From: Lepidodermella squamata
Taxonomy: Eukaryota > Animalia > Gastrotricha
Direction: 5' to 3'
Assembly: GCA_047495785.1 (NCBI GenBank)
Contig: JBLDXI010000042.1
Span: 1,984,001 to 2,048,000, forward strand
DNA: 64,000 bases
Made by a program: the position numbers and the translations under genes. Shown in pieces: positions 2,294 through 31,609 of this stretch (within the stretch, counting starts at the first letter, position 1; every line of letters begins with the position of its first letter). The notes beneath the pieces are model-generated. The model searched no databases. It was not told the DNA's origin and saw only the letters and a list, made by a program, of their open reading frames with translations.

Positions 2294-2317
2294 TTTTATT
2301 TGAAACTAGATAAATCC

Positions 2318-3481: not shown

Positions 3482-3503
3482 TTGAATTAAGACTAGATTT
3501 TAC

Positions 3504-4214: not shown

Positions 4215-4260
4215 TTACATTCCAATTAGAAATTTCTAATGCTGTTATAAAAATTGTGAA

Positions 4261-5814: not shown

Positions 5815-5822
5815 TGAGTAAT

Positions 5823-6116
5823 TCATTCATCTTTTGCGTTATTTATTATGTGTACATTACGTATTTTGAAGTGAGAACAATTTTTCAATTTGTTCGTAAT
5901 AATGTTACCGACAATTTCCTCCAATTGTTTCTCGGAAATAACCAACAATTTCTCTGTCGTGTTTAGCAACATTTCACTCAATTTCGCCATGTTTGATATT
6001 TCTCGCCAATACTTTTTACAACTGTTTTTATGAACCTCCTTATATGCTGATATCCTTTCTTCCTCCGTCAAATATTTTTTAGGTCTACCTCTCGGCTTCT
6101 TATTGTTTGATTCCAT
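5823..6116 (-). CDS. Small AT-hook protein
   Basis: KKPRGRPKK followed by Y.TEEER; similar ORF at the same position in C. Confidence 0.6.
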   Translation of the reverse strand: MESNNKKPRGRPKKYLTEEERISAYKEVHKNSCKKYWREISNMAKLSEMLLNTTEKLLVISEKQLEEIVGNIITNKLKNCSHFKIRNVHIINNAKDE

Positions 6117-6219
6117 TCTGAATTTTCTTATATATACATTACGAAGAGAAAATAATTTTAAGCTTTACCAGGGAGAATATTACTTAAAGAAATATTTTCT
6201 TAATATAATATATATAACA

Positions 6220-10489: not shown

Positions 10490-11830
10490 AATCAGCCGGT
10501 GGAGCGGTCGATAGACTGTAATGTAATGTGCCCGAGTAATGAAATCTGTAGAAATTTCAATGACCTGGAATGAACTCAAGAATATCTTGAAATCCGAGAA
10601 GTCGAATATCATACCGCTATTTCATGATTTTTATGCATTTTTTAACGACCTGCGTTGAAGATGAAAATTTTTCCAAATCTCACGAGTCATATGTCATTCG
10701 AAAGCCAGTAAAGTACAGATTAAAAAATTGGGAGTGGAATTTCAAGTTTCGCGGGCGTGAACAAAATTTTGGGCAGTCAAAACCTGCCAAAATGGGCTTT
10801 CTGACGACGTTTTGCGAATTTTCAACGACCTATGTTGAAGACGAAAGTTTTTGCAAATCCGATGAATCATATATCATTGGAAAGCCTGTAGTTTGTATAT
10901 TGGTTTGAGTCGAGTGGATTTTTGATTTTCGTATGTTTTAAAAAAAATTGTACGTGATGAAAAAACCACTATTTTTATGATTTTTCGATTTTTTAACGAC
11001 TTGAAAGAAAGACGAAAATGTTTACGAATCCGTTGAGTCATATATCATTAGAAAGCAAGTAATTAGAGCTGTCATACCTTATCAGCCGGTGGAGCGGTCG
11101 ATAGGCTGTTGCGTAATATTTGTGTATGAGGATCGGCCGGTGGAGCGGTCGATAGAGTACTGGGCTGGTAAGCGCTGACACTTATGTTCAATATATCAAT
11201 AGCCACTAATACATAATTAATGATTATTAATGCGTAGCGAATGCGAGGCTAATGCATAGTTCACAGTCAGTAATGTTCTACTCTTATAATCGGCCGGTGG
11301 AACGGTCGATAGACTGTAATGTTATGTGCCCAACTAAGCAAACATGTGTAAATTTCAATGACCTGGGGTGAGTTCAAGAATATGTCGAAATCCCATGAAT
11401 CTTATATCATTCGATAGCCTGAGACATGCAGATTGTATTCAGTCGAGGGGATTTCTGGATTTCTGAAGTAATATTGATAGAATTACGTATTGAAAAACGC
11501 TATTTTTCATGTTTTTTATGGGATTTTCAGCGGCCTACGTTGTGGTTACAAATTTATCCAAATCTCACGAGTCATATATCATCCGAAAGCCAGTAAAGTA
11601 TTGATTAAAAAATTGGGAGTGGAATTTCAAGTTTTGCGGGGTGGACAAAATTTTGTGCACTCAAAACCTGACCAAAATGTGCCTTTTCACGAAGTTTTTT
11701 CAAATATTCAACGACCTATGTTGAAGACGAAAGTTTTCGCAAATCCCATAAATCACTTATCATTGGAAAGCCTGTAGTTTGTAGATTGATTTGAGTCGAG
11801 TGGATTTTTGATTTCCTGACTCAGACTGAT
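10490..11830. repeat. Degenerate ~175-180 bp subterminal repeats in two blocks, plus four copies of a 24-bp hairpin motif
   Basis: AACGACC..GAAG...ATATCATT.GAAAGC recurs at ~10641, 10821, 10994, 11527, 11707; ATCRGCCGGTGGARCGGTCGATAG at 10491, 11081, 11132, 11289. Confidence 0.75.
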
Positions 11831-12273
11831 TATCTACGTAATTAGAAAAAAGAGATATTCTGATGATTTTATGCCTGGTTTTAATGTAAAATAAATTGGT
11901 GGGTTATTGCTGGTTATTTGTTATTGCAACGCAGTTGGGTGAGAAATGGGATCGTGCATGAAACAGTGAAACTGCATTACGAGAGCTGCAAAACTATTTG
12001 TTAAGAGAACTGCTCGAAATGTGTGGAAATATATACCGGCTATAATTTACAAGGTTAATAGCCATTACCTCTTCCATATAAATTACACTGCATGAATTAA
12101 CTATTGCAGCTATAAATCACAGACTATTTTCATTGAGTGCATGTCGTGTGCGCGAGTGGTTAGTGGTAAAACCTGTCAAGAATAATTTCTATATAAACAA
12201 CCAAGTATCTAAAAGGCTATTGAACAATAAAGTGAAAAAGAGAGATTCTCTCATTCTTGTTTTATTGCATGAT

Positions 12274-12348
12274 AGTAGTAAGGGGGGGGGTCTCCAGCAA
12301 CGGTCAAAAATTCAAATATTTTCCCACGGTCGGAGAAATGAATCATAA
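12274..12348 (+). repeat. Left terminal inverted repeat of element B
   Basis: AGTAGTAAG9TCTCCAGCAACGG...GAATCATAA equals the reverse complement of 31016-31089 apart from one G. Confidence 0.97.
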
Positions 12349-12949
12349 GAATAAATATGGAAAATGATGGGGAAATAAATGTCAAGGTCATGTGTAAAGT
12401 TTTGGCGCCAAAAATTTGAAATAAATGTCAAGGTCGTTTTCCCACGGTCACGTGACAGCGGCAGGACCGATCATTATTGATTGATTATCGATTATCGATT
12501 TTCGGAACTTATATTGGAAATAACAGGATGACAAAGATGTTTTCCTACGATCAGGTGTGACTGCGACAGTACTTATCGATTATTGGAAATCACGCTGATT
12601 GGAAATAATGAAATTCAATAGGTCGTTTGATGCGATTTTCCCACGGTCAGGATCGATGCTCGCAAAATGGAAACTTCCGAAAAGTCAAAATAAAGTAAAC
12701 AAATACCACGATTCAGTAGGAAAAAAAAATAAAATAAAATCCCAAAAATAAATGTCAATTTTGCTGACTGCGTTGTCTATCGTAATAAACATCAAATCGA
12801 TTTTTGATTAATAAATAAATTACATACACACCTTGCATTGAAATTTTATTGCGCAATTAAAACACTCACTCACTCACTCACTCACTCACCCCTTGCGCCT
12901 CACAAAATGTTCAAAATCACTCCTTGCGAATTGTGTGAAAATCATCGCA

Positions 12950-13246
12950 TCAATCTAACATGGGGGCATTTAAAATGCTTCGAATCAGCCGAACACGCTC
13001 AATCACTTGCACCAGCATTAGTAAGCCTTCCGCAGTTTCGCGTTGTAAAATCATCAACGAGTCGACTTTACGCTCGAGCTGATCAATTCGGAATCCAATA
13101 TTGTCAATGGCAAGTGATAAATCGCGCAGTTGATTCCGCTGCTGCTGCTGTTGAGGATGGACAGTTACAACCGCAGGAGATGGCTGTTGTTGTTGTTGCT
13201 GCTGTTGTCCTTGAGGGCTTCGAAAACCACTGGCTCGAGAATCCAT
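12950..13246 (-). CDS. Q-rich coiled-coil protein (hypothetical)
   Basis: Poly-Q then heptad pattern LRDLSLAIDNIGFRIDQLERKVDSL; 5' structure uncertain. Confidence 0.45.
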   Translation of the reverse strand: MDSRASGFRSPQGQQQQQQQQPSPAVVTVHPQQQQQRNQLRDLSLAIDNIGFRIDQLERKVDSLMILQRETAEGLLMLVQVIERVRLIRSILNAPMLD

Positions 13247-13661
13247 CGATACTAATAATGATGATGATGATGATGATCGTGCTGAATGCTCGCAAAGTAG
13301 TAGTACTAGTACAGTATCAGAGGTTGGTAATAAATTGCGAAAATTTGCAGGAGTAATATAGGTATTGCAACTGCAAAGTGTTGTTAGTGCATGAAGTTAC
13401 TTAGATGGCGCGAAAGCACACCAATAATTTGTAATGCTCCTGCTGCTGTCAAAGTTCCATTATACACTGGCGTTAATGCACTATAAGCGCGGGTAGAGAG
13501 GAGCGGCACGTCAACACACGTCACCGCTCATCAAAACGATCACCGCTCACCAAACCCTGGGAATAAAAAAAAAACCGCCAGGTTTCGCGCGCTTTACTTT
13601 CGTGACATGTAATATATGCGATTCTTGTTATAATATTGCGAATTGCTAATAATTCGAAGAA

Positions 13662-14453
13662 ATGGAGGAAATTTTCAAACACCCTTGGAATTTTCACCAT
13701 ATTATTGACAACATTTTATCGTGTATTCATAATGATCATGAGCTCGGCCATTTGTGCACAGCTTATTTCGAAACCGGGAGGTATGTAGTTAAATATCACC
13801 TGGAGAAGCGAATAGAGTGGTACCTAAGGCCTAACGATAACCGCTTTACGGCTATAACGAGTCGGATTGTTTTCGCGAATAGACCCACAGGTGATAGCCT
13901 CACACCATATTGGGTCGAATATGCAGCTTTTAAATTCGGCGCGACGAAAAGTCTCTTCGAAATTCTTCAAAATTATCACGTGACAGATTACATCGTCTCC
14001 TTATTCATGCGTCAGTTATTATTAAATAAATGAAAAATTAATAAAATTATTATTATTATTATCATTATTTCAGACCACGAACCGGATATGAAGTGTGCCC
14101 TTGAACCATTCTGGTCTATCTACATGCGAGAAAACGATCGAGCGTCGCTCTTGCTAGTGGCAGCGGCTAATCCAAACCTGACAAGCCGCTCGCTATCTCG
14201 AATGGTAGAAGCCGGGGCTGAAATCAATTTCGTGTCGCCGAGATGGCTACTTTCACCGCTATTAGAAGCCGCAGCCACTGGCTCAACCAGTTCGGTTTTG
14301 TACCTGGTCAACATGCGTGCAAACGTATATCACGCCGATTTGCATGGTCAACGCCCCATCGACCGTGTTCATACGTGCGAGTGGGAGAAATATCGCATTT
14401 TGCGTCAGGCTGAATCGACCAAGACAACATCAAAAATAAAAAGATGGCGCTGA
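13662..14453 (+). CDS. Ankyrin-repeat protein, possible N-terminal F-box-like motif; intron 14011-14073
   Basis: Splicing joins two ORFs in frame (242 aa); VEAGAEIN, SPLLEAA..G, RANVYHADLHGQRPID. Confidence 0.75.
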
Positions 14454-14606
14454 TGGGGCGGCGGCGGCCGGTATAATTCCAGATGATGATGATGATGAAG
14501 CAGAATAATAACGGTGGTCAAGACTTGAAATTTTTTTCAGAATAAAAGGCGCGCGCGCCACCCAGTTTTAATTTTTTTCCTATTCATTTTGCAATTTTCT
14601 CAAATA

Positions 14607-15170
14607 ATGTTTGATATCGACGTTTTTATCAGAAATACTGTTGCTACTTTTAACCTGGGCGGTGTTGAACTCGAGCTGCGTAAAATAATCACGTATTTCA
14701 GAATGGCAGAAATATCACCGAGATTCAGGAATGCCGTTATCATCAAGGAAAAATACTATTCCGCCTTGATTTTCAAAACAGGCAACATTGTTGTTATAGC
14801 CAAGAAACCAGAATTGGCTCTGAAATGCGGGCGGCGGTTAGCGAGAAAACTTCAGCTGCAGAGCAACAATAACTCGATCAAATTTCAAAACTTTCGAATT
14901 CGTAATTGTACCGTTACTGGTCAACTACCAACGACTATTAGCTTCAATACAACTCTCCTGAATGAATTATCTTCAATTAGCACTCGAGTAAAGCTCGACT
15001 TGACGCGGTTTCCTGCTTTGCGAATCGAAAATATTATGGACCAGAAAGTTAGTATTAATTTGTTTTCATCAGGTCGATTTTGTATTACAGGGATAACCGA
15101 TCCTAAATCTGAAAGGCAAAATATGGCTGTGGAAAAATTTCTTGTTATCGCTTTGGCGAATTCAAAATAA
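14607..15170 (+). CDS. Divergent TATA-binding protein homologue
   Basis: IRNTVATFNLG, ALIFKTG, KFQNFRIRN, RFPAL, NLFSSGRFCITG match both TBP core repeats. Confidence 0.9.
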   Translation: MFDIDVFIRNTVATFNLGGVELELRKIITYFRMAEISPRFRNAVIIKEKYYSALIFKTGNIVVIAKKPELALKCGRRLARKLQLQSNNNSIKFQNFRIRNCTVTGQLPTTISFNTTLLNELSSISTRVKLDLTRFPALRIENIMDQKVSINLFSSGRFCITGITDPKSERQNMAVEKFLVIALANSK

Positions 15171-15788
15171 AATTTCAATTTTTTTGTGTTAAAACAAATC
15201 CACCTTAATTTTTTTATTTTTACTTCGTACTCACTCTATATATTATAATCGCGCACAGCCAATAGCATGCGAGGTGGGCGGAGCTTGTGGACACCACGCA
15301 CTCACAATTATTTTGGCAATCATAACTAGTAGTAGGAGTAGTAGTAGTAGTAGGTAGTAGCCAGAACAACCATAAAACATGAATTGAATAGACCTTAATG
15401 TATGAATGACAATCTCAATAAATATAATATAAATAGCATAATAATAATAATAATAATAATAACAACAACACGAGTAATGAAGACTTATACCTCCCTAAAT
15501 TATGGTTCCAAAATCACTGTCCTGCCATCCTGCCTGTTGCGGAAAGTGGATTTCGACATTTATATGCAGCAACCTGAAATAATGCTAGCCAAAAGTCACC
15601 ATTTTACCTAACTACCTGTCAGCCAAAGTGGAGTTTGACATATATAATTATTGATGCGGACCCGTCATCAATCGTATAATAATAAACTTGGGTGCACTTT
15701 TGGGGGCTAAACGCAGGAAATATTATCGGACTGAGGTTACACATTATAGTTTTCACATTTATAGAATAATTCTATAGAATAACTTGTT

Positions 15789-16316
15789 ATGGATCAGCAA
15801 TATAACCCTATTGCTACCTACAACGAACTGTGTGCTGCTGCTCGCGATGCACAGCGTTTAATAAATATGCTGCAAGCCTTTAAGCAAGTAATGTCCAGAG
15901 AGGTGGACATAGTAAAACGGGACCTCAAGTATCTTGAGGAACATAGGTAAGCTTTTGACGAATTTTCTGTCGGCTAATCTAATTTATTACGCGTTAGAAT
16001 GATGATACCCCACACAATGAGTCCCGCCATCGAGGTACTACTCGGCCAACAGGTCATACTGGTTGAGATGAATGAACGAAGCTGCGCCCTGAAATGGTTG
16101 CTCAACGATATGATTAGCCAGGTGGAGCCAGCTGCCCGGACACAGCACGCAGCAGCCCAGCAGGCAGCAGCAGCAGTAGCTCAGCAACAAGCAGCAGCCC
16201 AACAGGTAGCAGCGCAGCAACAGGTAGCAGCGCAGCAAGCAGCCCAACAGGCAGCAACAGCGCGAGCCGTTCTGGACGAGGTCTTGGCCGAAGCCTTGGA
16301 CGAAAATCAAGAATAG
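15789..16316 (+). CDS. Hypothetical coiled-coil, A/Q-rich protein; intron 15947-15997
   Basis: GTAAG...CTAAT...TTAG intron gives a continuous 158 aa frame. Confidence 0.65.
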
Positions 16317-17161
16317 TCGCAGCAGAAGCAGTCAGAAGCAGTCAATGTGGAAATAGAGGAGATACGTCGCCCCACGCCTTGGTGAATATTCATATCACGG
16401 TAACAAAACATATGCTTAATTTACTTACACTAATAGCTCCACCTGAAAGCTGTCACTTCACTCGGTTCGAAGTTTTTGTAAATATAGCATACAAAATATG
16501 CAATATATTTATTACATTATCTCTATCTCACTCGAGGACACACACACACCCACACTGTAATAATGAATTCGACTCGAATTTTTTGTATATAGCGATTGTT
16601 ATTATTATTATTATTATTATTATATGCATGCTGGCATGTAAATAGATATCTCTCTCTCTCTCTTTCTTTGAAAAATTTTTAAACATAGCGCTTGCTTATT
16701 ATTATTATTATTATTATTATTATTTCGAAAAATTGTAATAATAAGAATCATGTAGAATTTCGCGCTTTAACCTGGTCGAACACTTGAAGTTCCATTTTTT
16801 TTTAAATAAAATAAATCATGACTTTTGTACTCCCATCTTTGAGTTCATTTTGAGAATGGAATGCAGATTTTTTTTCAGGGCGCGTGTTCATCGAATAATA
16901 AAATTGGACTCACGGCTCGTGGATATGATTGGTGTGCGAGGGGTGCTAACCAACCAATGAGCGCAGAGATGTATAGCATTACTAGTATAGTTTCTTTTGC
17001 AGTAGTAGTCGTACACTACTTCTTAACCGGTAGTTTTCCTACACACTTAAATAGTAACAATTTCCGCGCCAAAACAGCAGCAGCAGCACCGAGTGAGTAT
17101 TTAAAAATGCAGGCCTCTCATAAAGAATAATTTACCCAATTTCATCGATATAATTCTAGTT

Positions 17162-20100
17162 ATGTTGACTGACCTCGGCTATCACTGTTATTCTTACCTA
17201 TTCGGAATTGAGGTCCATAAGTATTCCATCACGGACTTGGATGCCTTACAATCTGGATTGGGATGGGAAACCGAAGACGATGACGATGAAGGTGGTCATC
17301 AAATCGTCGCACTTCTGACCAAGATTCAGCTCAGTTTTGAGTCTGTAGCTAAGCAAATTAAGGCAACTTTTCCAGATCGGTAATTTCCATTTATTTCCAT
17401 GAAAATTTATTGCAATCTGTTAATAATAATATATTATTTATTTGAAGAGATCACGTTCGAGTTGAATGCCACCACGAAGCCCTGCACACCCCATTCTTAA
17501 CCTCTTATATTGAAGTAAAGGAATTATCCGGAGCTCTGATTCTAAACCAGGCCAACGCGGTTTTACAATCTAGGCTGTGCGCAACAATGGAAGGGGGTAA
17601 TTAATTAATTTAAAAAAATCAGAAACTTCAAATAAAATAATTATTACTATTTTTAATATAAAAAAGGTTGGACGTTTTCTGTCTTCAGAATCAAGACTAC
17701 TGCATTGGAAGAAGACGAACTAGCCCTAGGGGCTGGTCAGCCGAAGAAAAAGCGACGTTTAGAGCAGACATTGGTCGATTTTATACTGTCTCACAGATCG
17801 GTTCTGTTCATAGACAATGACGATCGCTTGTGCCTATTCAGAGCCATTGTTCACGCTCTAGCTTACCGTGATTTTAATGAGCCGAGGGCTGGTCATGAAC
17901 GTCACGGAAATTTCGAACTATTGCGTCCCTATTATTCGAAAGATCGCGATGCATTGACACCATTGGCAATCCAAGAGCGAGCAGTAGCATTCGAATACGA
18001 AGGGCAATTGGCTAAGCAGCTGATGGAGACTGCTGGTATTGATGGAAATAAAGATCGCTATGGCATCGCGGATTTTAAAAAAGCTGTTGAAACAATAGGG
18101 CTACCGTATCGTGGTAAATTCTGGTACCTGAATACTATTTCGACCCTAATTCAAGAATTTAATTTTCTCAGGGATTATTTACAACTTCAAAACGAAACAG
18201 GTTGTCGCAATTCATCCTCCGGCAACTGTTGAAATAGCTGACGAGCGAAAAATTTACATTGGTTTTATCAGTAGTCAAACTATTGCTTCACATGTCGAAG
18301 GAGGCGTAGGGTCGTTCGAAAGTGTCGGACACTACGTCGGCCTAACTGGTATTTCTAACATATCAGGCGGAAAAATCATGTGCCCATACTGCTTCATGCT
18401 CCATAAGAAAAATTCCGTAGCGCATAAATGCAGTCGAAAGTGCAATAGGTGTCAAACCGTTGGGGCAGATTGTAAAAGCAGTCGAGAGCGGGACATAATA
18501 TGTCGTGGCTCTTGCGGACTCTATTACCATGGAAAGCAGTGCTATGAAGCTCATGTCAAGGTGAACCCAACTACTGGAAAATCAATCTGCGATTCTTTCT
18601 TCATGTGCAGCAAATGTGGAAGAACGTTGCCGGCAAAAGCTCGAAAAAAGCACAAATGTATGTGGCTGCGCAATTCGAAGCTTGCTCAGTGAAATTTAAT
18701 CTTTTAGGTGAAATTCGAAACTGCCGTGTCTGTAAAGGTGATTTGCCTCCACGCGACGAGTCTGCACCGCACGAGTGCGTTATTCAACCTGGTAGGATTG
18801 GGAAAGTAAAGCCGAGGTTGCTTGCGTTGTTTGATTTCGAGACAATTCGAGGCAACGATGGCACCCTGATACCTGTAGTTGTTTGTCTCAATTTCTTTTG
18901 CGAATCTTGCAAATTCCTACCGAGCTCTGACAAATGTCCCGCAAATTGTACTAATGATGATCCACGCACTCACTCATTTGTCTCTGACGGAAGTGACAAT
19001 TCTTGCGTTAACAAGCTAATGCGGTACATTCTTCAGGAGCAGTTCAGAGGTCTCTTCCTGTTGTCTCACAATGGAGCTCGGTAATTTTAATTTCGAAAAA
19101 CACTTTAGTTTTGAGATTTATTTCCCTACTATTACTATAACAAGCTTCGATCACATGTTCATCATGGCTTGGCTGCAGAGACATGAATACCAATTTGAAA
19201 CTATCCACCACAACAATAGTGTCATGGAGATCAAAGTTGAAGGCAGCATTGTATTTCGCGACTTTTACTTGCTAACAATGACGAGTTTGGCAGCGCTTTT
19301 CAAAGCATTTGACCTACAAAATGAAGACATTACTGGGAAGCAATTTTTTCCCTACAACCTGTTGACGCCCGAAAACTGGTTGAAAGACGTAATCAACGCC
19401 CCAACACTGAATGACTATGACACGTCAAAAATGTCATCTGCGAAAATCGATGAATTGAAACTACATATCGCACGGAATTCTTCATCTAATTTCAGCCTGA
19501 AATCGGAAACTGTTGCGTACTGTCATAGCGATGTCGTATTGCTACAGCAATGTGTAGTCAAATTCCGTGAGCTGATCCGTGAAATAACAACCATACCGGG
19601 GTCTTGTGACGACGGTATCGACCCTATCGCAGGTAAACCTAATAAAAAGTCCCTTTTGAATGAACCTCCACCTTAAAAATTTCTGCTTTTGAAGAGTCGC
19701 GAACTCTTGCTTCACTATCAAATTTGATTTGGAGAACTCTTTATCTGGATAAAAATCTGCCTATACACCTGGTACCAAATACAGGTTATTCCGCGGGGTA
19801 CATTTTTATTATTTTTACTTTTGATGAACATGATGGGAATTCTGTAAACCTCTCAGACCGAATTATTCCCGCGAATCGGTGATTTGGTTCGAATTTTTAT
19901 CACGAAAAAGTAACAAGCGGATTCTGCATGCTGGAAATTCGAATGGCGAGGTCACCATCAAGTTGCCAGAAACTTCAAAATTCTATCGATTCAAACCAGA
20001 CGGGGTTGTTCTGGATGAAAATGGTCACATTCGCGAAGTATTTCAATATCATGGTGATCATTGGCACGGTTGTTTGCGATGCTATCCTGACTGCACGAAT

Positions 20101-22254
20101 AAGCTACACCCGGTCCGGAATGTCACCTTTGGTGAGTTGTATCGTGAGACACTGGCGAAAGATCAGGCGGTAATTGACGCCGGCTATCAGCTAACTGTCA
20201 CATGGGGATGCGAAGCCAAGCGAATCATGGCTGAAGACGCTGTTTTAGCAGGCGAAATCGAGCGAACACTCACTATTGTTGACAGAGCTATGCCACGGCA
20301 ATTTTACACAGGTGGACGCACCGAGGTATAATAATAATAATAACTTTTATGCAAGACCACCAAGTAACAGTCATAATGACTGTTCACAGGTTTTCAGGCT
20401 ACATTACGAGACATTACCAGGGGAGAAGATAAGGTATTTGGATGTGAATAGTCTGTACCCGGCTGTGCTGAGCTCGAAGCTTGGATCGGTGCAAGACGGA
20501 TACGAGGAAGTATTTTTTCCTTACGGCAAGCCATGCCCGAAGGTTTTGGCAATGCGAAACAATGACATTGATCTGCGAGCACACTTCTTTTCGAAAGAAG
20601 ATCCAAGCTTTGGACTTACTAGTTGCCTCGTACGAATCAAGCGTGATGTCTACCTGCCAATTCTAGGGTATAGAACGTCCAGAGGCTGCCTGAAATTCGG
20701 ATCTTGCCGTTCATGTATGGAACTGGGAGCTCAACTCGCATGTGTACACAATGACGAAGAACGATGCTTTCATGCTTACGTGACAACTTCAGAATTGAGG
20801 CTCGCGCTCGATTATGGTCTATGCGAAATCGTCCGCTTCTATGGTACTAAATTTTCCTAATTTAATTGTATCTTCCCTATGATATATCGTGGGCATCTCT
20901 TCATAGAGACATACCACTACCCGAAGAAATCCAACATGATATTTCGTTCGTTCATTTACGCTGGGCTCAAAGTGAGTAATCAGTAGCTTATTTAGCCTTT
21001 TGTTTGAACTACCTGTTCACTCTAAAGATCAAGCTCGAATCCAGCGGCTATGATGGGCCTGACATTGATGACTACATTGAGACTTGCTCAAAACTGTACG
21101 GGTTTAAGATGGATAAAGACAAGCTGAAGAACCCCAATTCAGCACTGAGATCCCTTGGGAAATTGCTGTTAAACACTGGTTGGAATTGTTTAGTTGGCTA
21201 ATAATTCTGATAACCTTCCATCTCTCTCTCTTTTTATTTTAGCTTATGGAAAACTGGGTCTTAGACCTGATGGAATTCAAGTTTCATATGTCGACACACC
21301 ATCAGAGTTGTTGAGACTACTTCGAAGACCTGGCATGAAAATTCATGACATTGCCGTATTGCCTCCGAGTGAAGACTTCGAAGATGATGGTGATGGGATG
21401 CTAACCAAAGAACGGTTACGCATCACTCATTCAACTGAATTGGAAGAGTTCCAACCCTCGTTACCTGTGTCTAACATTGTTCTAGCTGCCATGGTTACTT
21501 CTGCTGCTAGAATTTACCTCTTCAAACAGCTCCATCGGCTCCAGGCAACCTTGTTGTATACTGATACTGGTGAGAATTCCGAAACAAAGTGCCCTAAATT
21601 CAACCATGAGTCGATCTTTCATTCATGTTTTAGACTCTTGCATTTACGTGGAAAAGCCGGGATCAGCCGTGCCACTGCACACAGGCGACTGTCTGGGTAA
21701 ATATATTGAACCGTTCAGAATAAAAATGAAAAAAAATCGGAATGAATATTCTTAAACTATTATAGGTAACTGGAAAGATGAGATCGGATCGGGAGATTAC
21801 ATCACAAAGTAAGGAATGAATATAACGAATTCAAAATCCAAGGTTAAATGTACCTTTATCAGATTTATTGGTTTGGCACCGAAGACGTATCTGATACAAC
21901 AATCTAACGGAGTAAGCTCTCCTGAACTTCTGACTAAACGAACAATTCTTAATCTAATTATTGTACTAGCAAACTACAATTCGAATGAAAGGCTTCCAGC
22001 TGAAACCTGCCCTCGAGAGGCAAGTCAACTACGACAGTTTCATGCGACTTCTTCACTCTATCAATGCTGACAAGAACGCAGACGAGGCTTGTTTGAAGTT
22101 GGAACAGCAGGTTTGGCGCCGATTTCAGTGCCATCCCTATGCAAAGGTTGCAATTCAAGATGTGATAAAAACACTCCGATTCAAGTTTATGAAACGCTTC
22201 ATTTCAGATTATGAAACATTCGAAACTGTACCCTTTGGTTATATTAAGGGCTAA
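17162..22254 (+). CDS. polB: Protein-primed family B DNA polymerase, 16 exons, 1389 aa
   Basis: Introns 17380-17447, 17597-17666, 18114-18171, 18658-18707, 19081-19144, 19633-19694, 19798-19856, 20326-20389, 20844-20906, 20972-21027, 21179-21242, 21570-21633, 21697-21765, 21809-21862, 21912-21969. Spliced protein has FDFET, HNGARFD, GGRTEV, YLDVNSLYP, KLLLNTAYGK, YTDTDS, APKTY, TVPFGY. A possible extra in-frame upstream intron at 17093-17159. Confidence 0.93.
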
Positions 22255-22271
22255 CGGACTGAATTGTGAGC

Positions 22272-23433
22272 ATGGCGATGTACAATAATAATAATAATAT
22301 CGCCATGCTTTCTGACGAGGACTATGTAACTCTTGATGAGCTTTTACATCCATTATATTATACTGCTAACTTGCCCAGTTCATTTCGATCTATTAAAATT
22401 CTGTACGAAGCTGCAAAGGCCAGGTATCCAAATAATCGGGTCATTACCTATAAAACAGTTCGAGAATGGCTATCGGCTCAACCGGCTTATAGCCTTTTCC
22501 GGCAAGCTTCTACGCGCAATCGTAAGCTTTATAGGCGAGTTGCGGTACATGCTAAGGGTTCCACCTTTGCTGGGGACCTAATGGAAATTACGAAGGAATA
22601 TCAATTTTTCAACGCGAGAAAGAAGTATGTCCTATGCATAAAGGACCTTTTTACCCGCAAAACTTGGTTGAGGGTGTTGAAAAATAAAACAGCTGCTATA
22701 GTGCTTGGTGCGATTAAAGGTATCATGTCCGAAATCGACTTGATCCCTAATCAGGTAATTACTGACAAAGGTAAGAGAAAACATCTGTCTGCCGCAGTGT
22801 CTTAATCTCCATTTAAAATCTCTGATCTAATTAGGATCCGAGTTTCGCGATAAGAAAGTTCAAAAGTACTTTTCTGATCTCGGCGCCAGGTTTTACCTCA
22901 CTAATTCTCCCAAGAAGGTGGGTGCAATCGAGACATTTATCAAGAACCTTCGAATGCGATTGGTTCGATATATGATGGCTAATAACACTAAAAATTTCAT
23001 CGATAAACTTGACGACATTTTGGATGCAATTAATAGCTGCCCAAATTCAACAACCGGCTTTAGCCCTGATGAGTTATGGAACCTTAACCCTGAATTGAAT
23101 GTGGCGCTTTCGCAACCCGGTTTCATGACTGTTTATGAGGATCACCCAGACAATTTAGTCGCTCATCGAAACGCTTTCAAGACGATTCGCCAAATACGAG
23201 TGAAATTCAATTTGGGAGATCGCGTTCGGATCTTGCAACAGCGGAAAATTTTCAAAAACCGAATTAAACACCCGACTTTTAGCGACAGAATCTACCATGT
23301 GACTGAAATTCTTCCTCAAAATGATCACTCGACGGTGGCTTACCGCGTATCATCTGACCCCAACGATAAATCCGGGCAACTGAAGCGTGTTTTCTACACG
23401 CATGAGCTCCAGAAGTTATATAAAGAGAAGTGA
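22272..23433 (+). CDS. Retroviral-type integrase (no chromodomain seen); intron 22771-22834
   Basis: GDL, spliced TDKGSEF, AIETF as the DDE triad; 365 aa. Confidence 0.92.
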
Positions 23434-23448
23434 TTTCGCACGCACCTT

Positions 23449-23721
23449 ATGGTAATGTCATCCATTTCAAATCCCGAACTTGCGTCAACTGATCGTCGAT
23501 CTCAGCAACTTCGACCTTTTCTCCTTGCAACGAGAACCGCAACTGCTTTTCAACCACCGAGTTTATCAAGCGTACCTAGATCCTCTTCATCATTAGCATC
23601 GCGATCAAAGCAAGTACTCGCCCTGGCTCTTACTCTGGTTTTACTGCTTTTGACCTTGGTTGTCCACCATCTACTATATCCAACCGTACCTACTCTACCT
23701 AATAATGCTGTCAGTCAATAG
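23449..23721 (+). CDS. Small putative membrane protein
   Basis: Hydrophobic stretch VLALALTLVLLLLTLVV; fills the integrase-penton gap. Confidence 0.35.
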   Translation: MVMSSISNPELASTDRRSQQLRPFLLATRTATAFQPPSLSSVPRSSSSLASRSKQVLALALTLVLLLLTLVVHHLLYPTVPTLPNNAVSQ

Positions 23722-24890
23722 CTACTACGGCAAGGACTTGATTCTAGTTCTACCATCTCATGCGTCATCAGATTTGTATCCTCAAAATACTGCTGCAGAG
23801 TTCAAAGTCAAGCTTCCACATATTATTGGTAAGTTGAATAAACTCGTATCGTGTTGCATCTTGTTACGCCTTCCGATAATAGATTTAGGGAGCGTTGGCT
23901 CTCATGAAGCTGCCCTCCTCGAGGTTTGCACTCCATCGCAGGTTGTTTCGCTGAAAAAGTCCACTTTTTTCGTTTTCAAAACCTCTTGGTTGGACCGTGG
24001 CACTCTTGAGGAATCACCTTACAACAACCCTTTGGAGTTTGCCGAGTGCCATGTGGGTGGTCGCATCTACGAGACAATGACAGATTACATCAATGACTTG
24101 CTCTCTGCTATGCCTGAATGGGCTGAAATCAACATGGCCTATGAGGAAGGCAAAGATCGCATTCGCTTTGACCTAAAACCCGGCTTCGGGTTGTACCTTC
24201 CCGAATTTACGGGGCAGATTCTTGGTTTTGGAAAGGCTGTCGTTTTAATTAACGTCCCTCCAGATGAAGAGTCTAGTGGGGATGAAGATTGGCAGCAGAG
24301 ACATGAACGGGAATATTTGAGCCTCTTCAGTCATTTATTGCGATTTATACTGGCCGGAAAAGATGGCAAAAAGTTGGTAATGGCAAATGGGAAAAAACCT
24401 ACATATCAGACCGACGAAGATGGTAAATTAACCCTGAATCTTTATCAGAGGAGTTTGGCAGATGAGGTCTCATTGGCCGCTGAGGTTGCTTATCGATCCA
24501 CGCGCAAAGATCAGCCGCTCTACTCTGAATTCATTCCGCAAATTCATTTCCACACTCCGCTGATTTATTGCTACACGGACCTCATTGAGCCGGTTATTTG
24601 CGGTGATAAAAGTGTCCCTTTGCTGCGAGTTTTTCCCGCGTCTTCTGGCGCATCCAACAAGCAAAAGTACAACCTGATCAGTTTTGCTGGCTCAACACCG
24701 TACTATCACCCAATCAAGTCGCAATTTTTGGACACCCTGAGCTTCATGATGTGCCTCGATTCAGGTATCTGTGATTTTCTTCTTCATCGTCAGCTGTGAT
24801 TTTTACGAATTGATGATTTTAGGAGAGAAATTAGTATTTAAACAAGGGAAAAGTATGCTGACAATCCACATACGTCCCATTCGCCATTAA
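23705..24890 (+). CDS. Minor capsid protein (penton); introns 23829-23882 and 24765-24822
   Basis: LVLPSHASSDLYPQN..F.V.LP, YCYTDLIEP..GD..VPLLR, spliced C-terminus GEKLVFKQG..LTIHIRP. Confidence 0.88.
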
Positions 24891-24892
24891 AA

Positions 24893-25416
24893 ATGCGACA
24901 ACCTATTAGCTCCGATTCATACCTGCACTGGTTTCAGCAACAACAGACTGGTCGTGGGATTTCTTCTTCAATCCAACCATTCACTGGACCCTCTATTGTT
25001 TTGATGCCACAAGTCGGTAATGGCTTGGGTAAGAACGGCGATTAGTTTTCATCAACATTCTTAGGAATTTCTCGTGTGTTGTTTTTTTTTCTTTTCAAAA
25101 AAAAATATTAGGTACTTGGCTCCGAGGTTGGGTACGAAATAGCCTGATTCCATTTCTACCCAGGCTCTTGAACACTGCTGCTACAGCGGCATCCAACATA
25201 GCTTCAGATATCTCCACGCGTCAACAGAGTGGCGCAGATCTCAATGTAGCTGAGGTTTTAAAAAACCGAGGATTGGAAGGTCTCAAGTCTGTTGGCAAAG
25301 AAGCTGTTAATCATTTAGCTTCTCAGTATGGATCTGGAAAGCGCAAACGCAAAGGGAAACCAAAAAAGCGTGCAGTTTTGTTCAAGCAGCCAAAATCGGA
25401 TCGCATTTTGTTCTAA
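24893..25416 (+). CDS. Basic core protein with Q-x-G-x-G motifs; intron 25029-25111
   Basis: QTGRG, QVGNGLG, QYGSG then a basic tail; 146 aa after splicing. Confidence 0.8.
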
Positions 25417-25492
25417 TTAAGTGTGTGTGTATAAAGGATCTTCAGAAATTGAATAAATTGTAATCGCCCAAGTGCTTTACGTTTTTACAATC

Positions 25493-26841
25493 ATGTCTGA
25501 CCATGCTATTAGAGCCGAATTAGCTGTTTTTGCCTCACCTGCATTCACAAATGAAATCACAGGAACGCACGTAACTGAATGCTTTCCAACAACATCGATA
25601 AGTGGAGCCCAGCAGATAACATTTGTTATCCCTGCTTCTGAAGCCTTCACGGACCTCAGTCACACCTATTTATCAATCAAGGCTACGCTAACACCGACGA
25701 ATGATGACATCACAACAGAGACATTTTGCTGCGCGGGCGTAAATAACCTGTTGAACTCCTTATTCGAGGACTGTCACATTTATCTCAACGAATGCTTAAT
25801 CACGCAGAATTCTTCGCTCCATAGCTACCAGGCATATATGGAAAACTTCTTATCGGCAACACAAGATATCCAGTCAACAAAGCTCACCAACGTTGGTTGG
25901 TACCCTGATACCCCCGGGTTGTTCAACAATCTGAAGGAAAATGCAGGGTTCAAATCTCGTCGTGCGCTGGTGAAGAATTTCGAACAAAAACCCGTCATCT
26001 CTTTGCTGGGGAAAATTTCGACCGATTTCTTCAATCAGGAACGATATTTGATCCCACAAACAAGCGTGCGAATTAAGCTGACTCTACACAAGCCAGAGTT
26101 TTTCCTTATGTCTGATAATCTGGCAAATTACGAGTTCAAACTTCTGGAGGCGGTCTTGCTAGTAAAACGAGTTGAGGTTGTTCCCGAGGTCACCATTGCA
26201 CTTGAAAAGGCGCTATTGGAAGCACCGGCTCGTTACAGTTTCACTCATACGGTGACTAAGCCATTCAATTTGCCTACCAATATGACGGCCATTTTCCTCA
26301 ACAACGTTGTATTAGGAGTGATTCCCGAAAAGATTGTATTAGGTAAAAAGAAAAAACCCATTTTTTTCAGACCATTCTAATATAACTTGTTTTACCATTG
26401 CAAGCCATGGTCGAGGATGAAGGTATTCAGGGTTCAGCTGCCACCAACCCTTTCAGGTTTCAACATTTCGGTCTTCAGAATATAACAATTACCATCGATG
26501 GAAAGGCTGTTGGTGGCACACCTCTTGCAATGGATTTCGAAGCTAACGATTGTGCCCGAGTTTACCAACTCATGCAAGATACCATATTTCCGACTTCGAA
26601 TTCAAAGTGTGTCAACATAAGTCGGGATGATTTCGTCAAAGGTGGTGGCTTTGTCATGGCATTCGACTTGAGTCAGGATTCGGATCCTAATGGACGTTTG
26701 ACGCAGACAGGACAGATGGCGATCAACCTTCTCTTCAGCAAGAAACTGACTTCTCCAACGACTTTGATTGCCGTAATGTATTATAAAAACAAGACGCTAG
26801 AAATTCAGGCCAACAGAACAGTCCTACATAATTTCTTCTAA
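25493..26841 (+). CDS. Major capsid protein; intron 26343-26404
   Basis: FTDLSHTYL, NNLLNSLF, YQAYME, DFFNQERYL, NPFRFQHF, AFDLSQD; 428 aa. Confidence 0.92.
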
Positions 26842-26847
26842 GAAAAC

Positions 26848-27339
26848 ATGAACACCCTGGAACTGAATGCTTTGCTCCATTCCGACCCTATTATCAATCA
26901 AGGTGTTTACGCTACAATTCCGTGCGATATGCTTCATTATTACGAAAACTATGATATGCATACTAAGCCTCTTTACCTAATCGTGAATGCCTCTCCAAGC
27001 TCGACAGCAGGCACTCATTGGATAGCCATACATGTAACGGAAACATCAATTACCTTCATGGACTCTTATGGTCAGGATTCGGGATCTTGGTCGGTTCGTC
27101 TGGACCATTTCATCGGTAACATGGCGAATTGTGGCAGGAAGCTCGTATCATTCAATCACCGCGGCCTTCAACCGTTTGACAGTGCCTACTGTGGTTTGTA
27201 TTGCCTGGTATTCCTACATCAGTCAGCTCGCGGTGTTTCCCTACCTAATATTCTTTCGTTAATCACTAATCATGGCTGGAATACGAGAGCCGAAAATGAC
27301 GCTTTTGTTGCACGCTTTGTTAAGGACAACTTTGCATAG
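26848..27339 (+). CDS. Adenain-like cysteine protease
   Basis: GTHW, FMDSYG, LQ...S.YCGLYC. Confidence 0.92.
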   Translation: MNTLELNALLHSDPIINQGVYATIPCDMLHYYENYDMHTKPLYLIVNASPSSTAGTHWIAIHVTETSITFMDSYGQDSGSWSVRLDHFIGNMANCGRKLVSFNHRGLQPFDSAYCGLYCLVFLHQSARGVSLPNILSLITNHGWNTRAENDAFVARFVKDNFA

Positions 27340-27362
27340 TATATAAAAAGAGCTGCTTGTAA

Positions 27363-28212
27363 ATGTTACCTACCATACATAATATTAATAAATCCATAAC
27401 GGAAGATTATATGACGATGACTTCGTTTACCACAGCTTTCCAGGCACCTTGTACTATAATCATTTCTGGCCCTAGTCAGGGTGGAAAATCAACACTAATC
27501 AAAGATATTTTGCTGTGCCCTGACTCATTCGATAGACCTATCGATAGGGTAGTTTGGTTTCGAGGTATTGCTCAACCAGGTCATGTCGAACTCAGTCAAC
27601 AAGTTCGGGCAGTGCGTGGAATTCCGATCGAATATCGGGATGACATAACAACCTTTCACGAGGCTGATTACCTGGGACCTGGGCATAAGCTGCTGGTATT
27701 CGATGATAATTACTGCGATGCCAAGGATATGAAGCAAGTTGCAGAACTGTTTTACCGCGGTTCGCATCACAGCCAAATTTCAGTAATAATGGCGCAAAAT
27801 AATTTATTTCCTCGGTTTGTTTACTGCTGTATGAATAATATATTATAACCATGATTTTTAGAGGAAAGTTTTCCCGAGATGTCACCTTGAATGCGAGATA
27901 CATTATTGTTTTTCGCTCACCTTGTGACATGACTCAGTTCGGACACCTGGCTCGTCGAATTTTACCCAAAGACTGGAGATTCTTGCAAGGTTAACAATTT
28001 GAATTTCATTTGAATATTACCGCTTCACATCATTAAAATATATAGAGAGCTTTGACATTGCTACGAGCGCACCTTTTGGTTATCTTTTAATAGATAACAC
28101 ATCATCTTGCCCGCCGTTACTCCGTTTTCGAAACTTTATCGGATCTCGAACTGGCAACGTTTTTGTAAAGGTGGAAGACGTTCCCAGCTTGAACCTACCA
28201 CTGACTATATAA
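27363..28212 (+). CDS. Packaging ATPase; introns 27815-27861 and 27990-28045
   Basis: GPSQGGKS, LLVFDD, GSHH, spliced QNNLFPRGK..LNARY and PFGYLLID. Confidence 0.92.
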
Positions 28213-28409
28213 AAAGGACTCTGTGTTACAGTAGGAATAAACACATCAAACTCTTGATTATGTTCGGTTTATTGTGTTACTACTACTACGAATACTACTA
28301 CTACTACTACTACAGTATATGTTAAGCATACGTAGATTATTAAGTAGGCGATTATATATATTGTCCAGTGTCAGTTTAGTCCATTGAGCCGAGAACGAAT
28401 TCTCTCTCT

Positions 28410-29066
28410 CTACTCGTTCAGGTTCGAGAGCATGTAGTAGATCATGTGCTGCAGTTCCATGAAGACTGCATCTGAGGCACAAAAACCATCTTGCGAGAAT
28501 TCCTGCGAATTTTCTTGTCCAATGATGTTATTACCCGCAGCAGGCAGGAAAAGGCGGACATCGACATATGTGCGGGGTGACCCGTTCGGACGAAATACCT
28601 TGGCGTGAAACATTCCTCCGATGTGATGTTTCGGTCCATTGCACATCATCTTCCCTCTCGGTAGTTTCAGCTCCTGCTTGATCTTGTCAACCCATGAGCC
28701 TTCGATCTGCATGCTTTCATAAATCATTCGCAGCTCTCGAGCTGAGAGATACAAACCCTTGCGTGTATAGTAGAGTTTGTTCACTTCGATTGCATGACCA
28801 ATGAAAAACTCAAGATCTGGAACGTGATCATCATGATTTCGACGCAAGATCATGAAGGTGGGCTCTTTACAGCTTGTTATCGACTGCCTGGCCAAGATGT
28901 AGTGTACTCGTTGAAATCGACTGAGGTCATTCCAACCAGGAATCAAACCGCTTCGATTTGAGCCGGCAGCAGCAGCAGCAGCATGACCACGTGGAGGTAG
29001 CAATGGACCATCGATTGTTGGCGATGAGGGGGTATCCATGGTGGTGGTGGTGGTAGTTTCCATCAA
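28410..29066 (-). CDS. Protein with two PC4-like (ssDNA-binding/coactivator) modules
   Basis: TRKGLYLSARELR and AKVF....YVDVRLF...GF...VFMEL resemble PC4 signatures. Confidence 0.55.
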   Translation of the reverse strand: MMETTTTTTMDTPSSPTIDGPLLPPRGHAAAAAAGSNRSGLIPGWNDLSRFQRVHYILARQSITSCKEPTFMILRRNHDDHVPDLEFFIGHAIEVNKLYYTRKGLYLSARELRMIYESMQIEGSWVDKIKQELKLPRGKMMCNGPKHHIGGMFHAKVFRPNGSPRTYVDVRLFLPAAGNNIIGQENSQEFSQDGFCASDAVFMELQHMIYYMLSNLNE

Positions 29067-29246
29067 ATAAAAGAAGTTATCTCAGGATATATACTACCTA
29101 AATGTAAAGCAAGCGTTAGTTATGACTATTTCCACCCTTCTCCGCAGGCAACCTTTTATACAGGTCGGACCGTTAGTTGTCAAATAGGTATTGTTTGATT
29201 AAGTATATTAACCGTTTCTAGTGACAGTTTGTTAATTAATAATATT

Positions 29247-29630
29247 ATGGCGCCAAAGGCGCTAACGTCAAAGCGGCAACGAACTCTTGACTTCCTACGG
29301 TTGCTTACCCAGGCACCACCTAGCCAGCGGCGACGGTTGCTCGGGTTGGCGCCAACTCGTATAGTTGTTCTGCTAACCGAAATCTGTCTAAATTTGCTAC
29401 GTCATAACCTGTCAGCGGACTCGAAGACAGTTAAGAAGCTACGTACATATAAAGCAACTATCGAGCGCATTTCCAAGTTTAAATCACCAGACATCAACCG
29501 CCAATTGCTAGTTCAAAACGGCAGTGGTGCTTTCATTCCCCTACTTATTTCAGCTGCTAGTAGCGTTCTACCTTCAGTTATTGACGGTATTTTGGCACTT
29601 CGTAAAAGCAGCACTAATCGTGATGTCTGA
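29247..29630 (+). CDS. Conserved basic Polinton virion protein
   Basis: RRRLL..A...V..LTEICLNLL..N...K.LR.YK...QNGSGAFIPLL. Confidence 0.75.
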   Translation: MAPKALTSKRQRTLDFLRLLTQAPPSQRRRLLGLAPTRIVVLLTEICLNLLRHNLSADSKTVKKLRTYKATIERISKFKSPDINRQLLVQNGSGAFIPLLISAASSVLPSVIDGILALRKSSTNRDV

Positions 29631-30579
29631 GAAGCATAGTCGTAAGTTGGTCCTCATGCAAGACTTGGCGGCAGATGGTAATGGAAATGTGACGACGACG
29701 ACGACGCCAGTTACTACGCGCGCAGAAGGTGTTTGTGATAAAGATGCACTACAACGAAGAGCAATGACGAGGCAGCGTTTGTTTGATGGGCCCGCCTATT
29801 CCAAGGTGGAAGATTTGGAAAATCAAATGACTGATATACTACAGCAACCAAATGTTAACTCGCAGAGTGCACGAGAGTACAACTACCTGTTCGGGGAACT
29901 TGAACGGCTCAAGCAAAACTTTCGACTGTTCCAAAATACCAGAGTTAACAACCAGACTGATCAAGCACCTACGAAAGAGTCACCTCGACCTCCTGCTCCC
30001 ACACCTGTTACTGGCACTACGCCTACCGCGGCGGCTGCTGCTGCTGCTTCTGATCCGGTAGCCGGTGGTAGTGATACTGCTGTAGCAGGCACGGTTACTA
30101 ATGGGGACGCTACAACCAATTACCTCAATGCTCGCTTTGGCAGTTTAAAGTCTGATCAACTTGAAAAAGCATCCTCTATTTTGAATCATCTGCGTTCGAA
30201 TTTGTCACCTGATGCTACCTTCACATTGGATGGATCATCGTCCTCCTCAACAATCACTTTTATTCGGGATGACAGTTCCTTGGCTGAGATCCCGGTCGAT
30301 ACTCTGGTTGAAGTCTTAACAAAAGCTCCAAGCAAATTATCAGTCTCCGCAAAGCAGCTGTTTCAACCAGTTGCGGAACTCTTGTCAAAGACCTCTGCAC
30401 CCATGCATCTATTCGCAAAGTCGAGCATTGGTAAATCGGTCACGGCGATGACTAATGCTCGCTATCAAAATCCGACGCGTCCGCCGCGCCAACGGTCTAT
30501 GTCGTCGTCATCGTTCCTTCGAGACATTGTTACACCTGATATTGCAACCATGTTTCCGTGGGAACACGTGGGAACATGA
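29623..30579 (+). CDS. Conserved Polinton protein of unknown function
   Basis: RKLVLM, LENQMTDIL..EYNYL, KASSILNHL, near-terminal W; overlaps the upstream stop. Confidence 0.65.
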   Translation: MSEKHSRKLVLMQDLAADGNGNVTTTTTPVTTRAEGVCDKDALQRRAMTRQRLFDGPAYSKVEDLENQMTDILQQPNVNSQSAREYNYLFGELERLKQNFRLFQNTRVNNQTDQAPTKESPRPPAPTPVTGTTPTAAAAAAASDPVAGGSDTAVAGTVTNGDATTNYLNARFGSLKSDQLEKASSILNHLRSNLSPDATFTLDGSSSSSTITFIRDDSSLAEIPVDTLVEVLTKAPSKLSVSAKQLFQPVAELLSKTSAPMHLFAKSSIGKSVTAMTNARYQNPTRPPRQRSMSSSSFLRDIVTPDIATMFPWEHVGT

Positions 30580-30799
30580 TAAAAGATTGTGGTTGCTGCT
30601 ACTACTACTACTACTACTAATACTACTACAACTATTACTACTACTATCGTAATAAAATTTGCAATAAAACACGACCTGCAGGGGTGTCTCAATCGTTCAT
30701 TCTCTCATTCATTCATTCATTCATTCATTCATTCATTCATACAACTGCATTTACCAAACCTGCCGCAGTCACATGACCGTGGGAACATTTTTCAACAAA

Positions 30800-31010
30800 C
30801 AACCTTGATATTTATTATTCAATTTTCATTTTCGCGCCAAAAATTACCAACGACCTTGACATTTATTTTCAAATTTTCATTTTCGCGCCAAAAATTACAA
30901 ACGACCTTGACATTTATTTTCAAATTTTCATTTTCGCGCCAAAAATTACAAACGACCTTGACATTTATTTTCACATTTTCGCGCCAAACTTTCTCAAACG
31001 ACCTTGACAT
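30800..31010. repeat. 51-bp subterminal tandem repeat, ~4 copies, each with TTTCGCGCCAAA
   Basis: Unit ACGACCTTGACATTTATTTTCAAATTTTCATTTTCGCGCCAAAAATTACAA. Confidence 0.92.
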
Positions 31011-31015
31011 AATCA

Positions 31016-31089
31016 TTATGATTCATTTCTCCGACCGTGGGAAAATATTTGAATTTTTGACCGTTGCTGGAGACCCCCCCCTTACTACT
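31016..31089 (-). repeat. Right terminal inverted repeat of element B
   Basis: Ends CCCCCCCCTTACTACT and is followed by CATGAT. Confidence 0.97.
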
Positions 31090-31103
31090 CATGATATCCT
31101 ACT

Positions 31104-31178
31104 CATGATCCTATTAGGGATCAACGCTTCATGATCCTATTAGGGATCAACGCTTCATGATCCTATTAGGGATCAACG
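31104..31178. repeat. 26-bp tandem repeat x3 with internal hairpin
   Basis: CATGATCCTATTAGGGATCAACGCTT at 31104, 31130, 31156. Confidence 0.9.
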
Positions 31179-31463
31179 AAGATCTACACCTCCATCCTCA
31201 CTGTCATCTTCATCATCATAGAATTCTCTAGGTGTGTTATCGATTTCCCGTTTAACTTGATCGATGCGCGACTGTTTGTCGCTCAGCTGCCTTGCGAGCT
31301 TTTGCATCCGCAACTTGATGGCTCGCTTTTGATCGAATAGCCGGCCGAGTTCTGCCTTTAATTGGGCGTGCCGTCTTCGAACCGCGTTGCCAGTTTGCTT
31401 GGTACCGTTCAGAAAGGCGAAGCGGTCTTTTCGCGCTGGTGGTTCGCTTTCCATTGTAGCCAT
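31173..31463 (-). CDS. Hypothetical coiled-coil protein with acidic tail
   Basis: 96 aa, heptad-rich and basic, ends YDDEDDSEDG. Confidence 0.45.
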   Translation of the reverse strand: MATMESEPPARKDRFAFLNGTKQTGNAVRRRHAQLKAELGRLFDQKRAIKLRMQKLARQLSDKQSRIDQVKREIDNTPREFYDDEDDSEDGGVDLR

Positions 31464-31609
31464 TGTTTTCCCCGAAGGGTATTATCACGTACTCAATAAC
31501 CATTTATAAAGCGAATCATGCATCCGTAATTTCTTCCAGCCAGCTCATTTGCATATTCACAGATTTAAATTAAAATCAAATTAAAGAAAATAGAAAACTA
31601 AATTTATTT

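Follow-up and report, generated by a model that had tools for sequence, protein, structure and literature searches.

A Polinton whose genes appear broken into short open reading frames (ORFs) raises the question of whether it is a decayed remnant or an intact element whose frames are joined by splicing. The question is posed here by a 64,000-nucleotide (nt) stretch of the Lepidodermella squamata genome (contig JBLDXI010000042.1, positions 1,984,001 to 2,048,000; hereafter the window, whose coordinates are used throughout), in which positions 12274–31089 hold a full-length Maverick/Polinton, complete in its ends and gene set. Its stop-to-stop ORFs are short, and Pfam matches among the pieces are to protein-primed DNA polymerase B (pPolB), rve, adenovirus protease and TBP. 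It is highly probable that the short GT-AG inserts separating these pieces are spliced out by the host, which would yield a full complement of proteins for replication, integration and the virion.

Identity of the element

By every defining feature tested the element is a Maverick/Polinton: terminal inverted repeats (TIRs) starting AG(T) with a 6-bp target-site duplication (TSD); a double jelly-roll major capsid protein (MCP) accompanied by penton, packaging ATPase and adenovirus-like protease; a retroviral-type DDE integrase (INT; profile E 1.1e-54); and a protein-primed family B polymerase with Exo I–III and motifs A–C. Intronless core ORFs, which describe intact vertebrate and nematode elements and are not part of the definition, are replaced by 23 introns in six core genes. 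The sole difference between the TIR cores of 75 and 74 nt is one G within a G run, and the TSD is perfect, as in the original prediction, whose identification of an intact Polinton/adintovirus is supported.

Catalytic motifs can be read in pPolB, integrase, ATPase and protease. In pPolB these are what we take to be Exo I (LFDFET), Exo II (HNGA-x-FD), Exo III (YCHSDV), motif A (YLDVNSLYP), motif B (KLLLNT-x-YGK) and motif C (YTDT-x-S), with presumed equivalents in the integrase (DLMEI, TDK-x-SEF, IETF), the ATPase (Walker A, GPSQGGKS) and the protease (H, D, Q, C). The penton is presumed to be one from gene position and motifs, as is the VSR-like nature of the pPolB insert, from a motif read by eye; the segment 19860–20250 matches the same segment of the related loci L088 (E 1e-18) and L056, and a VSR match in Pfam is absent. 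The predicted model of MCP exon 1 (pLDDT 88.6) matches the capsid structures of iridovirus, poxvirus D13 and mavirus (E 2e-7 to 2e-6), and integrase exon 1 reaches E 0.0013 against Pfam rve, below the cut-off.

Positions and signals of the introns

Reading the three frames of the element yields 25 GT-AG introns in nine genes (pPolB 16, INT 1, penton 2, core protein 1, MCP 1, ATPase 2, and two accessory genes with 1 each; Table 1), all of 47–83 nt, with a GC content of 0.28 as against 0.45 in exons. The marks of U2-type introns are present, namely GT-AG ends, a GTAAGT-like donor consensus (A at +3 in 18/25 and at +4 in 18/25, G at +5 in 13/25), a pyrimidine-rich 3′ end and a frame kept over the junction. 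Stops inside the exons of the nine genes number zero, in agreement with the earlier claim that intron removal restores stop-free frames, and 24 of the 25 introns shift the frame or bring in a stop if kept; the exception is penton intron 1, the sole in-frame, stop-free intron, whose only support is homology. Phase 1 prevails (16/25) and a G precedes 19/25, the phase skew retaining P ~0.03 after allowing for G, and introns are densest in pPolB, the longest gene, at 3.7 per kb. Eight host-gene candidate introns read by eye next to the element have similar signals and lengths of 50–68 nt (one of 196 nt).

The original prediction had counted 24 introns, with 15 in pPolB; the GT-AG ends, the length range and the counts for all other genes agree, and the total becomes 25, the earlier list probably leaving out 17093–17159, which is unsupported by relatives. 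The figure of 16 for pPolB assumes an ATG at 16957, and the true start may lie further upstream. Strong T-run CAG acceptors are observed at 16870–16878, upstream of this ATG and in its open frame, and at 14530–14539, upstream of the TBP-like gene, as possible signs of further leader exons or trans-splice sites.

Table 1. Features of the Polinton at 12274–31089, in window coordinates
Feature	Position	Strand	Remarks
Left TSD, CATGAT	12268..12273	.	Single copy at empty site
Left TIR core, 75 nt, begins AGTAGT	12274..12348	+	Looser likeness to right end reaches ~12440
Accessory gene	13662..14453	+	Intron 14011-14073 (63 nt, stop if kept); exon 2 weak ankyrin match, Ank E 0.013-0.03, below cut-off
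TBP-like gene, two TBP repeats, intronless	14607..15170	+	Pfam PF00352 E 3.6e-16; PDB TBPs E 1.5e-9
Accessory gene with Q/A-rich tract	15789..16316	+	Intron 15947-15997 (51 nt, stops if kept); no relatives found
pPolB with VSR-like insert, 17 exons, ~1435 codons	16957..22254	+	PF03175 E 4.4e-17 on one piece; 3-relative profile E 1.8e-103
pPolB introns	17093-17159, 17380-17447, 17597-17666, 18114-18171, 18658-18707, 19081-19144, 19633-19694, 19798-19856		
pPolB introns, continued	20326-20389, 20844-20906, 20972-21027, 21179-21242, 21570-21633, 21697-21765, 21809-21862, 21912-21969		
Retroviral-type integrase, without chromodomain	22272..23433	+	Profile of 42 relatives E 1.1e-54, columns 3-307 of 350
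Integrase intron	22771-22834		In second-Asp motif
Small ORF with hydrophobic stretch	23449..23721	+	No family match
Presumed penton (minor capsid)	23705..24890	+	Profile of 54 relatives E 5.6e-38
Penton introns	23829-23888 (alternative end 23882), 24765-24822		
Basic core-like protein	24893..25416	+	Intron 25029-25111 (83 nt); profile of 65 relatives E 1.3e-11
Double jelly-roll MCP	25493..26841	+	Intron 26343-26404; profile E 5e-125
Adenovirus-like cysteine protease, intronless	26848..27339	+	Pfam PF00770 E 1.2e-4, above cut-off
Packaging ATPase	27411..28212	+	Introns 27815-27861, 27990-28045; profile of 29 relatives E 2.2e-47
Intronless ORF	28410..29063	-	Faint PC4-like likeness, E 0.15
Conserved small Polinton gene, intronless	29247..29630	+	blastp vs relatives E 3e-9
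Intronless ORF, in place of conserved Polinton accessory gene	29623..30579	+	Unassigned
Right TIR core, 74 nt, ends ACTACT	31016..31089	+	51-nt subterminal repeats 30795-30980 precede
Right TSD, CATGAT	31090..31095	.	Perfect match to left copy

Tests against related Polintons

A profile search with MCP exon 1 returned 3849 matches at E ≤0.001 (best identity 35%), and tighter alignment scans fetched 125 Polinton loci. When the two exons are placed on a profile built from 40 full-length MCPs, exon 1 occupies columns 6–286 and exon 2 columns 286–429. For INT, ATPase, penton, core protein and MCP, junction reads carrying an X at the join align without a gap there (E 1e-54, 2e-47, 6e-38, 1e-11 and 5e-125, respectively), and the spliced pPolB read matches its relatives' profile at E 2e-103, a comparison of spliced proteins with pPolB and MCP profiles having been proposed earlier as a check. 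In a cut-length test that ignored GT-AG signals, the intron length came out on top among the 13–21 possible lengths at 12/23 junctions, where about one is expected, and was correct at 8/8 junctions with more than 20 bits of profile signal. As a control for decay, breaks in the relatives' non-polymerase genes carry −5 to +7 nt of extra DNA in 37/50 cases and a clear intron in 1/50. Because of the blind test and this control, the inserts are not attributable to chance, and the introns are almost certainly real. For penton intron 1 the 60-nt form (23829–23888) is preferred by the blind test and fits the relatives better than a 54-nt form.

Variants and an empty site

Public run X1, which may be the source of the window, holds 93% of its sampled words. 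Contigs of X1 span the element with all inserts, in a version slightly different from that of the window, and one contig joins 12267 to 31090 with a single CATGAT copy, the empty site that had been proposed as a check. This filled/empty polymorphism supports the earlier claim of recent insertion, and the element has probably been mobile recently. Among 10 indels in X1 inside the element none falls in an exon and two fall in introns (2 nt and 1 nt). In pPolB up to 18707, 5/12 substitutions are intronic (introns being 18% of the length; P 0.048), four silent and three missense; exonic substitutions are silent in 6/10 cases, with 21 places shown inside the element. No contig of runs X1 and X2 skips an intron, X1 behaving as DNA and X2 being nearly without the stretch. 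A low-depth X1 contig joins 22046 to 22948, 23003 to 25492 and 25540 to 27188, with ends that are not splice sites, and represents either a deleted derivative or a chimera.

These data bear on the reading of the element as a dead copy, in which a provirus without introns later took up the inserts, as introners or as random DNA. Such a history has a precedent in dinoflagellate Maverick-like proviruses, which introners enter after integration (PMC11957031, in the part consulted). The inserts here share no sequence, however, the best intron–intron score being 26 as against a shuffled mean of 18 and maximum of 27 (within the element only), and an introner origin was rejected on the ground that the introns form no family of similar sequence; introns so unlike each other argue against a recent introner burst. 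All inserts recur in the slightly different X1 version, the TIRs are nearly identical, and the exons lack stops and frameshifts. A polymorphic site, near-identical TIRs and clean exons leave no time for 25 insertions at this site, and the dead-copy reading, which we hold to be very improbable, is largely refuted.

Several observations weigh against a fully functional, spliced element. The blind test missed the intron length at 11/23 junctions, mostly where the pPolB profile holds 2–3 relatives; another GT-AG pair outscored the called intron at 3/23 (penton intron 1, pPolB introns 6 and 10); and homology support is absent for the two accessory introns and pPolB intron 1. Acceptors read AAG at 6/25 introns, and a clear branch-point motif is present at 12/25 only. 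The integrase is without the chromodomain that most relatives carry. The empty-site contig has 43 letters on its short side and a flank differing at 19 places, so that a paralogous site is possible, and the variant test is small, covering 40/65 differing places, 21 of them within the element. Splicing, expression and particles are all inferred from DNA only.

Introns in other Polintons and their origin

Introns in core genes are not unique to this element, as at least five other lineages have pPolB introns. The fetched loci contain 41 pPolB genes, of which 26 are split into two or more pieces and 25 have a flagged intron candidate; among those 25, L066 shows decay, 20 come from a single sample's family (L090–L120), and L010, L053, L085 and L089 are separate, with L124, below the coverage cut, forming a sixth intron-bearing lineage. 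The relatives L010, L053, L085, L089, L124 and L090–L121 resemble the element in their short GT-AG pPolB introns, often in catalytic motifs and mostly of phase 1, and differ in having, as far as seen, 1–5 introns per pPolB and one INT intron, compared with 16 and 1. Intron candidates occur in 0/124 MCP genes and 0/60 ATPase genes of the fetched relatives, the MCP-pattern fetching favouring unbroken MCPs; in four database MCPs (P0008, P0024, P0136 and P0076) the reading frame stops within or continues through intron-like sequence, at other positions. Uniqueness would thus be an overstatement: pPolB and INT introns are present in other Polintons, and the element is the most intron-rich case among those compared, standing out by its scale and by having introns also in MCP, penton, core protein and ATPase.

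Three of the 25 sites match other elements in both codon and phase: pPolB intron 6 with L090–L121 (ExoII; 6/6 family loci read), pPolB intron 13 with L010 (motif C), and the INT intron with L089. Within the L090–L121 family intron place and phase are kept as the interior diverges, over 59–86 nt, in all six loci read. Such sharing is what inheritance from an intron-bearing ancestor of animal Polintons, with intronless elements derived, would leave; yet 22/25 sites are seen nowhere else, one shared site joins two very distant polymerase classes, and a quick MCP tree shows the elements with introns scattered (3 changes versus 4.4 shuffled, with 60/500 as low), the present element being a long unplaced branch with a best identity of 35%. 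Introns in motif B, at three neighbouring codons in three elements, look like an apparent hot spot, and ancient inheritance is judged quite unlikely. Conservation percentiles at the element's junctions are mixed (0.19–0.97), and a targeting of conserved motifs is not established for it. In L085 a GC-AG intron (687–748) is observed in motif B, one codon past the L010 site and two past that of the element. The three shared sites provide a clean case for weighing parallel gain against ancient inheritance.

Forty-four of the loci (L083–L126) come from bacterial metagenome-assembled genomes and are animal-type Polintons, some with spliceosomal introns; they are probably host DNA that was assigned to bacterial bins. 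No relatives turned up when viral contigs were scanned with window pieces or with alignments A4 and A5, word-index protein searches gave no match, and L001 was dropped as a spurious match.

A proposed spliced nuclear replicon

The favoured account, of a Polinton spliced by its host, would run as follows. Host Pol II would transcribe the element's genes in the nucleus, and the host short-intron machinery would remove the introns much as it does the host's own introns of 50–70 nt; pPolB would copy the excised element from its TIRs, and the integrase would reinsert it with a 6-bp duplication. The introns may have been gained one by one at G-rich proto-splice sites, mostly in phase 1 after G, during long nuclear residence, and would have been kept because replication as DNA offers no reverse-transcription or cDNA step that could purge them, with only exact loss tolerated. 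As dependence on splicing would preclude expression in a cytoplasmic giant-virus factory, a nuclear replicon is inferred, whether transposon or autonomous virus, in place of a virophage-style parasite.

Selection might instead have favoured introns as camouflage, sparing the element's transcripts, those of pPolB in the germline above all, from a host response that silences foreign DNA without introns. In human cells, HUSH silencing of transgenes that lack introns is counteracted when an intron is inserted (PMC8770142); introns are densest in the element's longest gene, and among relatives the gene usually spliced is pPolB. Against this, the element's TBP-like, protease and other genes are intronless, and the window holds two intronless Polintons of another polymerase class (~1–10300 and ~43300–59500), making three Polintons within 60 kb. 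The right one has an unbroken 1535-aa pPolB, that of the left one lying in pieces; since both share the window, the host does not require introns, and camouflage appears unlikely. Both carry an Endonuclease VII insert in pPolB, with PLA2-like and chromodomain matches at the integrase, and they are 69–91% alike in aligned parts, with no DNA-level kinship to the element. The earlier reading of the introns as spliceosomal is supported by their appearance; the description of the element as fully adapted to host splicing is an interpretation, given these intronless neighbours.

The element may also move solely as a DNA transposon, its capsid genes retained with no particle formed, in keeping with Maverick virions being unobserved as of PMC8097293 (in the portions seen) and with the absence of particle evidence here. 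MCP, penton, core protein, protease and ATPase are nonetheless stop-free with splice signals kept, which argues for selection on the virion module, and movement without a particle is a serious if somewhat doubtful contender. Slightly stronger, and still short of an even chance, is the suggestion that surveys have missed a class of polintoviruses that are nuclear and depend on the spliceosome. Their whole virion module would be spliced like host genes, their late genes would be driven by the virus's own TBP, and active, particle-making members would be filed as decayed.

Other features of the element and window

Candidate TATA-like boxes lie at 23417, 27340, 28206 and 29160(-). An intron-bearing family unrelated to the element, that of L099, encodes TBP and a TFIIB-type zinc ribbon protein (L099 8616–10045). 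PC4 identity is not supported for the ORF at 28410–29063 (E 0.15), and Protein Data Bank (PDB) sequence searches with one pPolB exon gave no match. Two unassigned coiled-coil ORFs lie at 12953–13396 (-), inside the left end, and 31173–31481 (-), just beyond the right end, and 31105–31180 repeats a CATGATC motif beside the insertion site.

A nuclear-receptor gene at ~35300–38290, with a supported ligand-binding domain and two apparent C4 zinc-finger DNA-binding domains read by eye, indicates an animal host; a PDB sequence search with the host zinc finger gave no match. At 62194–63860 lies a Harbinger/PIF-type transposase (PF13359 E 6.6e-32), accompanied by a convergent partner gene and containing two candidate introns, each of ~50 nt. 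Related-looking satellite arrays of 180–190 nt (10490–11835 and 41473–42504) stand beside Polintons, with a 73-nt array at 42883–43353.

Comparison with known systems

Published surveys either make intronless ORFs the mark of an intact element or rely on prokaryotic tools for gene prediction (PMC8097293, PMC10120064), introns being assumed absent in PMC10120064, which supports the original prediction that ORF-based pipelines would miss such an element; intron-blind surveys thereby count spliced, active families as fossils. Capsid genes that need the spliceosome imply nuclear expression, bearing on whether Polintons are autonomous nuclear viruses or parasites of helpers, and the 25 junctions make the expression of each gene testable, as a spliced read cannot derive from DNA. 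Literature searches on animal Polintons yielded no description of core genes with spliceosomal introns, though Pritham 2007, Haapa-Paananen 2014, Repbase and supplements may annotate multi-exon genes; the available portions of PMC8502044, PMC11131425, PMC11296320, PMC11244446, 10.1101/2023.08.22.554363, 10.1101/2024.03.25.586562 and 10.64898/2026.10.13.758929 contain nothing on them.

Vertebrate Mavericks (Barreat and Katzourakis 2021, PMC8097293) have in common with the element pPolB, INT, ATPase, protease, major and minor capsid proteins, TIRs and the 6-bp duplication; their 134 intact elements, intactness there meaning intronless ORFs, are reported with the words 'No introns were observed', whereas the present element has six split core genes, carries TBP-like and ankyrin-like genes in addition, and has no chromodomain in its INT. 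Nematode Mavericks/Polintons (Widen et al., 10.1101/2022.07.12.499685; Jeong et al., 10.1101/2023.08.22.554363) possess the same core set, in intronless form, with introns described only in host-derived cargo genes, and the VSR-like insert of the element's pPolB may, by its motif, correspond to that of the pPolB2 class of marine nematodes and molluscs (10.1101/2023.08.22.554363). Adintoviruses with Beta-type PolB (Starrett et al. 2021, PMC8502044) are similarly animal-associated and combine an integrase with an adenovirus-like virion module; the text seen of that paper uses 'intron' once, for a maturase, and 'splic' and 'exon' 0 times, and assignment of the element to the Alpha or Beta class is by likeness and not by its reference set. 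A further parallel is with dinoflagellate Maverick-like proviruses (PMC11957031), full-length Polinton-like elements with capsid genes and spliceosomal introns, in which the introners are repeated copies, mostly gained after integration, whereas the 25 introns described here are unrelated in sequence and the host is an animal.

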